A DNA stretch of 64,000 nt from an uncultured Candidatus Saccharibacteria bacterium (GTDB lineage Bacteria > Patescibacteriota > Minisyncoccia > Phycocordibacterales > UBA9973), in contig CAYNLU010000001.1 of the NCBI GenBank assembly GCA_964398205.1, forward strand, positions 417 through 64,416, given 5' to 3'. Position 1 is the stretch's first letter. Every line of letters begins with the position of its first letter. The notes beneath the pieces are model-generated. The model ran no database searches, had not been told where the DNA came from, and was given only the letters and a program-made list of their open reading frames with translations. Position numbers and translations under genes: made by a program. This document shows, in pieces, positions 4,883-43,531 of the stretch.

Positions 4883-4919
4883 AAAAAAAATTAATAATTT
4901 TTAATAAAATTAAACAATG

Positions 4920-4993
4920 TCCGCCCTCTTGGACTCGAACCAAGGACACTTCGAGTATAAGTCGAATGCTCTACCAACTGAGCTAAGGGCGGA
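4920..4993 (-). tRNA. tRNA-Ile (anticodon UAU)
   Basis: Full cloverleaf on the minus strand: acceptor CCGCCCU/AGGGCGG, D-arm GCUC-AGUUGGUA-GAGC, anticodon arm UUCGA-CUUAUAC-UCGAA, 5-nt variable loop, T-arm CUUGG-UUCGAGU-CCAAG, discriminator A. CCA is not encoded. Confidence 0.8.
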
Positions 4994-8128: not shown

Positions 8129-8511
8129 GGGGATGCAAGGCATAGACAAGAGCCGTATTTATTTATGCATACCGAGATGGATTCTCTCGTAAACTAATCC
8201 AAAGCCTAATTGCAAAATTAGCATCTAAGGTAAAAGTAGCTTCTCCATACTTCAGTATGAAGAACTTTGCTTTTGCTCCAGCTTTCGCTTAAGGAAGCCG
8301 GTGTCAGTTTTATAGACTTCCGATATATAAAAACTGGCAACATTTATCGGGATAAGAAATATATTGCCGAATATGTTTACGAAAATTTAGGCTCGATTAA
8401 AAAATATTTTGCTTATTTAATAATTTTTTAATCTAAAACGATAAATATGCTAAGTATGTAGATTTAAATGAAGAAACCTTTTGCACGGGGGTTCGATTCC
8501 CCCCTTCTCCA
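8129..8511 (+). ncRNA. ssrA: tmRNA (SsrA)
   Basis: 5' GGGGAUGCAAGGCAUAGAC resembles the tmRNA 5' end and D-loop analogue. The 3' tRNA-like domain is GGGGG-UUCGAUU-CCCCC plus acceptor CUUCUCC-A. An internal tag ORF ends ...NFAFAPAFA-UAA (8281-8292). The smpB-ssrA linkage supports the call. Confidence 0.75.
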
Positions 8512-8943
8512 CAAAATAAAAAACCACTTTGTACTTTTACTTAGGTGGTTTTTTGTTTTTTCAATTTAATAACTTTAATAATTATTTTTGATTTAAAAAT
8601 ATAAATCAAGACTATTTTTACCTTAAATAAGAATTTTGGAGTAAAAAGTTTTTTTATTAAAAAAGTTACTAATTGCTCAGTTGAGTTCCTGTTAGGATCT
8701 AAATCTACAATATACTCATATACCGTAAACTCTAAAGTATCTCGAATTGATTTAATTATTTTTCTCATTTCCAAGAACAATTTGATACAAATCCTAGTAT
8801 AGCAAAATGTATAAAAATACGAAGATAACCCTTCATAAAGTTATCCACAGGTTAAAGGTTTTAAGTATTGATTCTATATATAAAAGGAGTATATTAATAC
8901 TTATATTAGTTCTTTCAAAAGACTTGTGAAAGTTAGGTTGTTG

Positions 8944-28547: not shown

Positions 28548-28901
28548 TTATTTCTTCTTAGCTCCTGCTGCTCCAGCGTTAGCTGTAGCTGCTTTTGCTT
28601 GAGCTATTTCGGCTTCTTTCTTCTTTTGCTCTAATTCTTTTTGCATTTTACCTCCGTGCTTAGTAAATTTCTTTGTAGGAGAAAATTCACCTAATTTGTG
28701 ACCTACCATATCTTCAGTTACTAAAACTTCGATATGGACTTTACCGTTATAAACACCAAAAGTAAAACCTAACATCTCAGGTGAAATAACAGCCGCTCTT
28801 TTCCAAGTTTTTATCATTGGAGTTTGTAGAGGGTTTTTACCTGCTATTTTCTTTAATAGTCTCTCGTCAACATTTATTCCTTTTTTGATTGATCTTGTCA
28901 T
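28548..28901 (-). CDS. rpsS: 30S ribosomal protein S19 with an Ala/Lys-rich C-terminal extension
   Basis: MTRSIKKGINVDERLLKKI...GHKLGEFSPTKKF is canonical S19. The extra tail is KKKEAEIAQAKAATANAGAAGAKKK. Confidence 0.9.
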   Translation of the reverse strand: MTRSIKKGINVDERLLKKIAGKNPLQTPMIKTWKRAAVISPEMLGFTFGVYNGKVHIEVLVTEDMVGHKLGEFSPTKKFTKHGGKMQKELEQKKKEAEIAQAKAATANAGAAGAKKK

Positions 28902-29434: not shown

Positions 29435-29471
29435 TTTTTATTGACTTTAACACAAAAATACATTTTTGTAA

Positions 29472-29508
29472 ACAAAAAACCACTAGTTTTGCTAGTGATT
29501 TTTGTTTT
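29472..29508. terminator. copy A of a 36-bp repeated terminator hairpin (ACAAAAAACCACTAGTTTTGCTAGTGATTTTTGTTTT)
   Basis: Nearly identical (one A indel) to copy B at 31621-31656. Stem CACUAG/CUAGUG with A and U tracts. Confidence 0.6.
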
Positions 29509-29532
29509 TTATAGTAAAATCTTCATTTTTTA

Positions 29533-29895
29533 TCGCTGTATTCTTGCAAAAACTATATCATTAGTTACAGCATCGAATAAAAGATGTAATCCATTTAAAT
29601 CAAAAACCCTACCTAATTTTAATTCAACATTTCCTGTCTTTAGATCAATAAATTCATAATAAAATATGTCACTAGTTAATCTTTTTTCAACCTTTCCTGT
29701 TTTTCTATCAGTAATAACTTCTTCGTAAACTTTAGTTGCTAGATTTTCCTTTCGATTATTGTCATCCAGAAAATAAAATTTATGTGCAGGAACATATGGG
29801 CAAGGTGTCGGATTAGGATCATTAGGAATAGGGTCGCATGGGTAATAAATTGCTTGTGACTCACCATAATAACCATCTAGTTTTTTGCCATTTCT
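29533..29895 (-). other. 121-codon -1-frame extension of the upstream CDS, open from the slippery site A_AAA_AAC (mRNA 29888-29880) to TAA at 29530-29532, with 115 codons beyond the zero-frame stop; no start codon of its own
   Basis: The frame contains no ATG, GTG or TTG. It begins exactly at the heptamer GCA AAA AAC that precedes the zero-frame TAG at 29877-29879. The translation is Pro/Tyr-rich (YYPCDPIPNDPNPTPCPYVP) followed by KTG repeats. Confidence 0.5.
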
Positions 29896-30614
29896 TCATA
29901 AGAAAAAACCGGTTTTAAATCCAACACCTCGGGCCATAAATGTCCGATTATTGTTAATTTATCATCACTTGGTATTATTACAATATTTTTATTTAAGAAA
30001 TCATTTTTTTCTTTATTGTATTCTAATACATTTATATTAGTTTCAACTTTTAATCCAGATGATATAAACACACCGTTTTTAGAAAAAATATTTTTTCCAC
30101 TAATATTTAGTTTATCATAGGAATTTAAACCGAAGAAATCTTTATTTTTATAGAGAAAATCTTTGTAATTTGTTGCGATTTCAAAAGCAAAAGTTTGTTT
30201 ATATTTATTATGATCCTGTAAAAAATCCTCAGTTGACTTGCCTAAATGTATTTTTTTTATTAAATCTTTATTTGTGGTTTCAATCTTTTTTATGAATCCG
30301 TACTCGTTTAAATCAACTGTCCAGTCTTTTCCATTTAGTAAAATAAAATCTTGGACTCGTTTTTGTATTTCTTTTTCATTGAGTTTTTTATAAACTGAAG
30401 TTTTATAATAAGAAGGAGTAGTTTCTAGTTTTTCCTTCACATTAGATATATCTATGAATTTATTTTGGTCATAAAAATCTTCTGTAATTTTAGTATCGTT
30501 TAGATTATTTTTTATAGAAGAATTGTCATTTATTTTAATAATTTTATCTTTAAATTTAAAAAAAATTACTAAAATTATTACAAAAACAGAAATCAAAACT
30601 ATGCTTTTTTTCAT
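29877..30614 (-). CDS. secreted or membrane-anchored hypothetical protein (245 aa as called; probably longer via the -1 frame)
   Basis: N-terminal signal/TM anchor KKSIVLISVFVIILVIFF. See the -1 frame continuation at 29533-29895. Confidence 0.55.
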   Translation of the reverse strand: MKKSIVLISVFVIILVIFFKFKDKIIKINDNSSIKNNLNDTKITEDFYDQNKFIDISNVKEKLETTPSYYKTSVYKKLNEKEIQKRVQDFILLNGKDWTVDLNEYGFIKKIETTNKDLIKKIHLGKSTEDFLQDHNKYKQTFAFEIATNYKDFLYKNKDFFGLNSYDKLNISGKNIFSKNGVFISSGLKVETNINVLEYNKEKNDFLNKNIVIIPSDDKLTIIGHLWPEVLDLKPVFSYEEMAKN

Positions 30615-31597: not shown

Positions 31598-31620
31598 TAA
31601 TCTAATTATAACCAAACAAA

Positions 31621-31656
31621 ACAAAAACCACTAGTTTTGCTAGTGATTTTTGTTTT
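31621..31656. terminator. copy B of the 36-bp repeated terminator hairpin, immediately 3' of rplB
   Basis: ACAAAAACCACTAGTTTTGCTAGTGATTTTTGTTTT. Separates rplB from the inserted cassette. Confidence 0.6.
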
Positions 31657-31660
31657 AGAA

Positions 31661-32500
31661 TTATTTCTTTTTACCAACTTTTCTTCGAGATACGATGAAT
31701 ACGTTTGAGTATTTCTTAGGAGTACGAGTTTTGCGTCCACCTGTAACCTTACCCCAAAGAGTTTTAGGTCTCTTAGTACCGCGACCTTGACGGCCTTCAC
31801 CTCCTCCGTATGGGTGATCTACTGGGTTCATAGCAGTACCACGAACCTTAGGACGAATACCCTTCCAACGTGAACGTCCAGCTTTACCGAAGTTTACTAA
31901 GTGATGCTCTTCATTTGAAACTGTACCAATACAAGCCCAAGCATTTTCAGAAACTTTACGAACTTCTGAAGATGGCATTTTAAGTGAAGTATAACCTTCA
32001 GCATTCGCTACAACTTGAGCAAAGATACCAGCAGAACGAGCTATTTTAGAACCTGTACCTGCTTTGATTTCAGCGTTATATACAAAAGTACCTACTGGAA
32101 TATTCTTTAAAGGAAGTCTATTTGCTGGAGTTAAAGAAGCTTTTTCAGATACTATGAAAGTTGTACCTGGCTTTACGTCTTTTGGTAAAACTACATATCT
32201 CTTTTCACCGTCTTTATAAACTGCAAGTCCAATAAAAGCACTGCGGTTTGGATCATATTCAACAGTTTTAATAACTGCAGGAATATCTTTTTTATCATAT
32301 TTAAAATCAACATCACGATAAAGTCTCTTGTGACCTCCTCCACGATGTCTTGAAGTAAGACGACCAGCGGAATTTCTTCCCATAGCTCTTTTGAAACCTC
32401 CTGTTAAGGATTTTTCTGGAGCTACTTTTGACAACACACCTTTATAGGTAACAGTTGTCATTTGTCTTCTTGATTTACTTGTAGGTTTGTATGTTTTCAT
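31661..32500 (-). CDS. rplB: 50S ribosomal protein L2
   Basis: 279 aa with canonical L2 motifs (GRNSAGRLTSRHRGGGHKRLYR, HPYGGGEG). Confidence 0.95.
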   Translation of the reverse strand: MKTYKPTSKSRRQMTTVTYKGVLSKVAPEKSLTGGFKRAMGRNSAGRLTSRHRGGGHKRLYRDVDFKYDKKDIPAVIKTVEYDPNRSAFIGLAVYKDGEKRYVVLPKDVKPGTTFIVSEKASLTPANRLPLKNIPVGTFVYNAEIKAGTGSKIARSAGIFAQVVANAEGYTSLKMPSSEVRKVSENAWACIGTVSNEEHHLVNFGKAGRSRWKGIRPKVRGTAMNPVDHPYGGGEGRQGRGTKRPKTLWGKVTGGRKTRTPKKYSNVFIVSRRKVGKKK

Positions 32501-32790: not shown

Positions 32791-33456
32791 TTATTTATTT
32801 CTTCTTCCAGCTAAGAATTTAACACTTTCTTCCGCGTTTTCAATCACTAAATATTTATGATTTAAAACATCAAGCGGATTTAAGTTTTTTACGAAAACTA
32901 AATCAAGGGCTGGTAAATTTCTAAAGCTTTTAACTTTATTATCTTCTTTATCAAATAAAGCAGTTAATAATTTTGGTTTTTTGGAAGTAGCTAATTTGTC
33001 GTCTTTTAGGATTTTAGCAATATTTTCTAAAACAACTTCTGCATTTTTAGTTTTCAATTCTGTCATTGCTAAACTATCTATAAATAGTATTTCTCCGTCT
33101 TTTAATTTACGAGAAAGTACTGAGTATAAAGCTTCAGCACGCATTTTCTTTGAAATTTTTCTGTCGTAATTTTTCTCTGAAAGTGGACCGTGAGTCACAC
33201 CTCCCCCTACCCAGATAGGTGAACGAGTAGATCCATGACGAGCACGTCCTGTACCTTTTTGTTTCCAAGGTTTGCGACCACCTCCACGTACTTCTCCACG
33301 ATCTTTAGTATCTGCAGTACCACTACGTGCGTTAGAACGCATAGATTCGACTACTTGGTGAACTAAATCACTTCTCCATTTTGCACCGAAAACATTTTCC
33401 GGCAAATTTATAGAGCCTACTTCTTTTCCTTTTTGGTTGTAAATCTTTGCTTCCAT
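32791..33456 (-). CDS. rplD: 50S ribosomal protein L4
   Basis: Typical L4 with a Gly/Arg-rich loop (RGGGRKPWKQKGTGRAR). Confidence 0.9.
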   Translation of the reverse strand: MEAKIYNQKGKEVGSINLPENVFGAKWRSDLVHQVVESMRSNARSGTADTKDRGEVRGGGRKPWKQKGTGRARHGSTRSPIWVGGGVTHGPLSEKNYDRKISKKMRAEALYSVLSRKLKDGEILFIDSLAMTELKTKNAEVVLENIAKILKDDKLATSKKPKLLTALFDKEDNKVKSFRNLPALDLVFVKNLNPLDVLNHKYLVIENAEESVKFLAGRRNK

Positions 33457-42938: not shown

Positions 42939-43460
42939 TCAAAATTTAAAATACTCGAAAGGAATATAAACTTCTGCGTAGTTTAAACTTTTTACAAAAG
43001 TTTTTAATACAGGCAAAAGAAGGCCGTTTGTATTTTCTGTGGTAATGAACAATTGGTGGTTTTCTTGACCACCAAGCCAATGGTTTGGTTTTTGTTCAAT
43101 AAAATCTTTATTTAATACATGAACAGACCTGATGTTTAACTGAATTTTTTTAATCTGATTTTTCTGACTATAAAAATATCCAGGTATTTCAAGAATATCA
43201 TGTCTTAGAGAAACTAAATGAGTTTCTTCGAAAAGAAACTTGGCTTTTTCAAACCTGTCTTTATCTCCTATATCAAGACGGTTTTTTTGAGTAGGCATAA
43301 CCGGAACACCACAATGCCCACAATGATAAATCCCCCGCAATGATTCTTCTGCACCGTTGTGATAAGTAAAAGAATGCGTGATTTTTGTAATTTCCCCAGA
43401 AAAATTACAAACAGGACAATTATTATTAGTCTCCAGTTCTATAATTTTAAAATTACACAT
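42939..43460 (-). CDS. Zn-ribbon-containing hypothetical protein inserted between rpsG and fusA
   Basis: CPVC...(30 aa)...CGHC pattern, then a 120-aa domain of unknown function. Confidence 0.5.
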   Translation of the reverse strand: MCNFKIIELETNNNCPVCNFSGEITKITHSFTYHNGAEESLRGIYHCGHCGVPVMPTQKNRLDIGDKDRFEKAKFLFEETHLVSLRHDILEIPGYFYSQKNQIKKIQLNIRSVHVLNKDFIEQKPNHWLGGQENHQLFITTENTNGLLLPVLKTFVKSLNYAEVYIPFEYFKF

Positions 43461-43531
43461 AATATTTGGTTTTAAAAGATTAAAAAGAATTTGATTTCCC
43501 CTTTACCTTAACCTAAAACTAAACAAAAAGC

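Follow-up and report, generated by a model that had tools for sequence, protein, structure and literature searches.

On the minus strand of a 64,000-nucleotide stretch of DNA (the whole of which is called the window here), one gene stops at a TAG codon directly after an A-rich heptamer, and the same mRNA can be read on through a long open frame one nucleotide back. This locus raises the question of whether the two frames are joined by design, as an earlier note on the sequence suggested in naming the heptamer a classic programmed -1 frameshift signal, or whether they are the two halves of a gene broken at a homopolymer. Here we analyzed the two frames, their homologues, their genomic setting and the available copies of the locus. 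The frame break is probably the result of an ordinary A7-to-A6 deletion in a lineage-specific accessory gene, leaving a truncated product or a young pseudogene.

Reading frames at the locus

The features around the junction are given below.

29877..30614, minus strand: zero-frame ORF, 245 codons and TAG, with its ATG at 30614
29898..29896, minus strand: TGA of the -1 frame, five codons 5' of the A run
29886..29880, minus strand: A_AAA_AAC heptamer, in phase with the zero frame (X_XXY_YYZ) and including the A6 run
29886..29881, minus strand: A6 run, part of the A_AAA_AAC heptamer
29879..29877, minus strand: zero-frame TAG stop, immediately 3' of the heptamer
29530..29880, minus strand: -1-frame continuation, 116 sense codons and TAA (29532..29530)

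Re-reading of the sequence bears out the earlier description of the gene end (TAG at 29877-29879) and of the in-phase A_AAA_AAC at the shift point, which has the X_XXY_YYZ form. The zero frame ends in ...TAT GAA GAA ATG GCA AAA AAC TAG, and its TAG comes into frame from the CTAG 3' of the A run when the reading is shifted; in the -1 frame the reading is AAA AAA CTA GAT GGT TAT TAT GGT GAG.... This frame does stay open to the TAA at 29530-29532, as had been noted, and its length is to be corrected from 115 to 116 codons, a count which includes the CTA (29880..29878) overlapping AAC and which gives a fused product of 361 aa. The continuation contains no ATG, GTG or TTG codon, in agreement with the earlier reading, and it is the only start-less ORF of at least 100 aa in the 64-kb window. 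At the base composition of the window the chance of a 116-codon open frame is about 1e-4.

Because the -1 frame is closed by the TGA at 29898..29896, the frame change is confined to about 17 nt with the A6 run inside, and the heptamer with this run is the only plausible place for it. The junction of the fused product reads ..FSYEEMAKN|LDGYYGESQAIYYPCDP.., with the trans-frame junction peptide ...PVFSYEEMAKNLDGYYGESQAIYYPCDPIPNDPNPTPCPYVPAHK (or ...AKKLDG...). One extra A, which turns A6 into A7, makes a single ORF reading ..EEMAKKLDG...

Homologues and the ancestral gene

The fused sequence was searched exhaustively with HMMER against 1.84 billion representative proteins. The matches were two public gene calls of the same DNA, P0001 (239 aa) and P0003 (135 aa), along with eight distant homologues of 24-33% identity. 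Seven of the eight (P0004-P0010, 295-494 aa) are near full length, and the eighth, P0011 (205 aa), covers the N-terminal region alone. Each of the seven near-full-length homologues is one unbroken ORF, so the comparison proposed for orthologues in the earlier note, here made with distant homologues, gave no case of a split gene. None of their alignments has a gap at query residues 245/246; aligned together with them, the window junction stands gap-free opposite ..FSADQLKKKLVGTQYTYQPLLYPCDP.., and D348 and T351, which are invariant in the family, are encoded by the -1-frame part.

A profile was also built from the seven homologues alone, with the window protein left out. Against this profile the fused protein scores 104.5 bits in an alignment continuous across the junction, and the N-terminal piece by itself scores 82.3 bits. 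The C-terminal piece by itself reaches 13.6 bits (E 1.4e-6 as a single-sequence search) and adds about 22 bits to the score, and the peptide read in the zero frame beyond the TAG gives -1.8 bits. At codon level, P0005 has TTG AAA AAG AAA TTA GTT GGC (LKKKLVG) where the window has ATG GCA AAA AA- CTA GAT GGT. With the A added, AKKLDG falls in the P0005 columns and ..EEMAKKLDG.. is aligned to ..DQLKKKLVG...

Since the homologues are uninterrupted and gap-free at the junction and the invariant residues lie in the -1 part, the two pieces are, on the evidence of these alignments, ancestrally one gene of about 361 codons. The earlier proposal that both frames make up one protein of about 360 aa thus holds in the evolutionary sense. 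In the simplest history suggested by the comparison, an AAA AAA Lys-Lys pair would have lost one A.

Protein family

The zero-frame ORF corresponds to the N-terminal two thirds of the family protein, with the conserved motifs NG..W / YGF / DFFG and GH(F/L)WP. The -1-frame part is the C-terminal third, which has a YPCDP..CP loop, an ELK/RL strand and the DAxT motif with D348 and T351. An AlphaFold2 model made from the 8-sequence alignment is of moderate quality (pLDDT 64, pTM 0.58; above 90 at residues 70-130) and shows a hydrophobic helix at the N-terminus (residues 3-23), with beta strands further on in the C-terminal third. The helix fits the earlier claim of a secreted protein, which may equally be membrane-anchored. 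The Pro-rich linker and KTG repeats of that claim were also found, as a Pro-rich, Cys-containing segment (YPCDPxP...CP) and two KTG-containing repeats. The N-terminal helix together with the mostly conserved YPCDPxP..CP loop suggests a protein located outside the cytoplasm that possibly contains disulfides.

When the model was compared to the PDB via Foldseek, no match reached an E below 0.26. Profile scans with Pfam, NCBIfam and PHROGs gave no family for the frameshifted protein or for its two ORFan neighbours, and an NCBIfam scan of three of the homologues gave none either. The family is sparsely distributed and uncharacterised, and the protein is predicted to be membrane-anchored or secreted. 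The contexts of the homologues are unrelated: a large S8 peptidase / FG-GAP protein precedes one of them, and another sits among metabolic genes in a genome which does not look reduced.

Within the C-terminal part (29533-29880, minus strand), two similar segments, ..ITDRKTGKVEKRL.. and ..IDLKTGNVELKL.., occupy residues of about 290-335 of the fused protein, where this part is also about 25 residues longer than in the homologues. The two segments and the extra residues suggest a possible internal duplication of a beta-hairpin unit.

Genomic setting

The frameshifted gene lies within the S10 ribosomal protein gene cluster, between rplB and rpsS. The window has a G+C content of 32.7%, and its L2 protein shares no more than 83% identity with the L2 of Candidatus Nomurabacteria / Paceibacterota (metagenome-assembled genomes). 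The neighbouring features are as follows.

32500..31661, minus strand: rplB (L2)
31618..31656, minus strand: hairpin copy A, directly 3' of the rplB stop codon
31624..30674, minus strand: orf316, membrane ORFan with no family match, the upstream partner in the repeat-bracketed unit
29470..29508, minus strand: hairpin copy B, followed by a T run, 22 nt past the -1-frame TAA
29434..29063, minus strand: orf123, ORFan, also in the rplB-rpsS interval
28901..28548, minus strand: rpsS (S19)

Copies A and B belong to a 39-nt palindromic, terminator-like direct repeat. They are 95% identical and lie 2148 bp apart, flanking orf316 and the whole two-frame gene. The 26-nt core of the repeat occurs exactly twice in the window against 0 expected, and the fold of the terminator-like hairpin has z = -4.67. 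As copy B comes after the -1-frame TAA, both the hairpin and the repeat boundary of the cassette, and with them the structural end of the unit, follow the -1-frame extension and not the TAG. The gene or cassette has its natural 3' end at copy B. The repeats may be the mark of a cassette insertion, or they may offer a route to excision by recombination between the copies. A Logan contig of the locus (L003) terminates within both 39-nt repeat copies.

For the comparison of synteny, 80 Paceibacterota loci (L004-L083) were retrieved via L2. None of them has a relative of the frameshifted gene or of its neighbours near rplB. In 58 related genomes the rplB-rpsS spacer measures between 23 and 5284 bp, and in Paceibacterota this spacer is a variable site of insertion. 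Unrelated ORFs are held in these spacers, including a family of about 130 aa in 9 loci and one of about 255 aa in 6. A terminator-like hairpin of their own stands right after rplB in several of the closest relatives that were inspected, so that the S10 cluster appears to be transcriptionally split at this point.

Copies of the locus and search for other alleles

The exact truncated product is encoded on the NCBI contig, on ENA contigs ERZ27309394 and ERZ27309396 and on the Logan contig of SRR6747781, the last of which is reported in 12 samples. Over 12.7, 6.7 and 2.2 kb, respectively, the DNA of the two ENA contigs and of the Logan contig matches the window at 100% identity. The same A6 is thus present in at least four contigs from three assembly pipelines (NCBI submission, ENA k141 and Logan), as compared at the level of assembled contigs, and the Logan contig traverses the A tract unbroken, ending only at the 39-nt repeats. 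No other gene in the 64 kb is broken, despite 142 A runs of six or more in the 74 long ORFs of the window, so the assembly does not appear to be generally error-prone. With identical contigs and a sole broken gene among so many runs, a consensus error is unlikely, and the simple assembly error that the earlier note had kept in view loses ground. A6 is very probably the true state of the DNA.

An intact A7 allele was never observed. The hypothetical A7 product was absent from about 15 billion proteins in an exact look-up, and a DNA pattern scan of JGI metagenomes for A4-A9 gave 0 matches. Neither a protein-guided scan of the JGI metagenomes nor a scan of GTDB genomes with the protein found a close orthologue, and word-indexed protein searches, done with the fused protein and with the family alignment, returned almost nothing besides the gene itself. 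The collections searched held no close orthologue above 33% identity, which explains why the intact allele was not seen.

Probable deletion in the A tract

Of the options left by the earlier note, a real indel at the A6/T6 homopolymer fits best with the reproducible A6 and the contiguous homologues. The ancestral gene would have been one ORF of about 361 codons for a membrane-anchored or secreted protein. In a population of Nomurabacteria (candidate phyla radiation), one base would have been truly lost from the Lys-Lys AAA AAA(A) tract, turning A7 into A6, and ribosomes would since then stop at the adjacent TAG and give a 245-aa product without the conserved C-terminal third. The outcome would be a recently truncated gene or young pseudogene in a lineage-specific two-gene insert between rplB and rpsS. 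As the lesion happens to create A_AAA_AAC followed by a stop codon, a small full-length fraction may persist via slippage of the ribosome or the polymerase, and this leakage may be incidental, low-level and unselected. A7 runs are common within genes (30 in 74 genes) and provide a ready mutational source for such a change.

The state of the downstream frame has to be weighed along with this. The -1 frame shows no decay and its conserved motifs are intact, which is also expected of a translated region and counts against the deletion. Of all substitutions possible in the extension, about 5.7% introduce a stop codon, and in simulation the probability that the frame stays open is 0.5 at 3%, 0.33 at 5% and 0.12 at 10% neutral divergence. 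Ongoing translation is thus not required, and the open frame was dropped as proof of translation, since it can stay open in the simulation without selection. The open frame does not separate the competing explanations, and it says no more than that the lesion is of fairly recent date or that translation makes it tolerable.

The locus resembles ordinary homopolymer-indel pseudogenes in that the frame changes at a mononucleotide run, one base restores colinearity, the allele is reproducible, stimulators of recoding are lacking and the gene is a lineage-specific accessory one. It differs from the documented cases in that no intact allele was seen, and we infer the direction of the change, its age and the loss of function. 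The finding is an ordinary one.

Programmed frameshifting as a less likely alternative

In a programmed frameshift of the IS1 type, A_AAA_AAC and the adjacent stop would yield the 245-aa and 361-aa isoforms by design. We consider this unlikely. The arrangement has the expected outline, with a heptamer in phase, two ORFs overlapping narrowly in the -1 configuration and an intact, start-less downstream frame. IS1 insA-insB' uses the same heptamer without an established stimulator, and likewise has a short zero-frame ORF and a start-less -1 extension whose fusion makes the longer product (PMC4066793). The IS1 heptamer is a proven bacterial site and is cited there as an example of a low-efficiency motif (PMC4066793). 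IS1, however, is a mobile element whose two-ORF layout is conserved in its family and experimentally proven, whereas the layout here is found in one sequence only and the homologues are single ORFs. The Pfam, NCBIfam and PHROGs profile scans turned up neither a transposase nor other signs of a mobile element at the locus. The two-frame layout with the heptamer occurs in none of the seven near-full-length homologues, the closest of which is 33% identical. As the C-terminal third is conserved in every one of them, a mostly truncated product is unlikely to be a design.

Stimulatory elements were looked for on both sides of the heptamer. The hairpin or pseudoknot that the earlier note had proposed to seek was not found: RNA folds of 40, 60, 80, 97 and 111 nt 3' of the heptamer are no more stable than shuffles (z from +0.5 to +1.3), and this RNA is, if anything, less structured than they are. 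Upstream, no GGAGG, AGGA or GAGG of Shine-Dalgarno type was seen by eye in the 30 nt 5' of the heptamer. As sites of the IS1 type can lack stimulators, the missing stimulator weakens the programmed reading and goes no further. The E. coli dnaX gene is likewise chromosomal and non-mobile with an A-rich heptamer, but its heptamer is the far more shift-prone A_AAA_AAG, stimulators are present on both sides (a Shine-Dalgarno-like element upstream, a hairpin downstream), and frameshifting gives the shorter of its products.

The heptamer is also part of the background of this A-rich genome. A_AAA_AAN occurs in phase 53 times in the 74 long ORFs of the window (8 as A_AAA_AAC and 12 as A_AAA_AAG), in ordinary genes including rplD (32791-33456) and rpsJ, and it is thus no specific signal here. 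The frameshifted gene itself has five further in-phase copies, and about one third of the phases of a single-base indel in an A run yield a canonical X_XXY_YYZ. Where a genome is very A-rich, the presence of a canonical slippery heptamer at a break in frame thus has almost no diagnostic value, and the earlier reading of this heptamer as a programmed signal finds no backing in homologues or stimulators.

A stop codon directly after an in-phase heptamer is a context which can enhance slippage. A_AAA_AAC shifts far less readily than A_AAA_AAG in E. coli (PMC5009743), which speaks against design. By analogy with IS1, where A_AAA_AAC is proven, some incidental slippage is plausible here, and nothing points to selection for it. 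If the site were programmed after all, it would be a stimulator-less, IS1-like site in a non-mobile chromosomal gene for an envelope protein, setting the ratio of truncated to full-length product, and a rare case of chromosomal recoding in an uncultivated lineage. We know of no recoding event demonstrated in the candidate phyla radiation.

Further unlikely alternatives: phase variation, transcriptional slippage and sequence error

It is also improbable that the A tract is a phase-variable switch, in which a surface protein would be on at A7 and off at A6 with the sampled populations mostly off. A frame change in a homopolymer of a predicted envelope protein, with the downstream frame fully intact, is what such a switch would show. 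Against it, every assembled copy is A6, the searches gave no A7 protein and no A4-A9 DNA variant, and the Logan contig is not interrupted at the tract. Tracts of A6 and longer are ubiquitous in the genome, and A6/A7 is short for a classical phase-variable tract.

Compensation via transcriptional slippage, in which RNA polymerase would insert an extra A while copying the T6 template and functional full-length protein would be made from the A7 mRNAs, is very unlikely. Poly(A)-frameshifted genes rescued by polymerase slippage have been reported in AT-rich endosymbionts, and the locus is like these systems in its AT-rich, reduced genome, in the lesion within an A run and in the intact downstream frame. 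It differs from them in having only six A's, which are expected to slip very little since the known slippage-prone runs are usually of nine or more A/T, and in being known from DNA alone.

A sequencing or assembly error hiding a true A7 genome with a single 361-codon ORF is the least probable of all. In its favour, indel errors are classically found at homopolymers and a perfect ORF comes back with one more A. Against it stand the agreement of three pipelines, the report of the Logan contig in 12 samples (the underlying read sets may not be fully independent) and the sole broken gene among the A runs, and six bases is far under the length at which errors in short-read consensus get common.

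Gene calls, stop codon usage and RNA genes

The locus calls for one annotation entry, a frameshifted gene or pseudogene about 361 codons long. The public gene calls now split it into a 245-aa (or 239-aa) protein and a spurious 135-aa "gene". The latter call, P0003 (97% identity), spans 29530-29937 on the minus strand and starts with MARGVGFKTGFFLW, the TGA at 29898..29896 being taken as Trp in the Logan/ENA gene calls. It was rejected as an independent variant, since it is the same DNA with TGA called as Trp. The MARGVGFKTGFFLW N-terminus has no counterpart in the homologues, whereas the zero-frame GHLWPEV...FSYEEMAK has one. A genetic code with TGA as sense, under which the 135-aa frame would be an independent gene, was likewise rejected, as the ribosomal protein genes and other conserved genes are intact under table 11. 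On this sequence evidence TGA seems to be merely rare and not a sense codon.

In 76 long ORFs the stop codons are TAA in 62, TAG in 13 and TGA in 1. The sole TGA-ended ORF is an unannotated one of 187 aa (stop-to-stop) at 42939-43502 on the minus strand, between rpsG and fusA. A tRNA-Ile with anticodon UAU lies at 4919-4992 on the minus strand, and a tmRNA at 8129-8512 on the plus strand has an unusually long predicted tag of 26 residues, AKLASKVKVASPYFSMKNFAFAPAFA.
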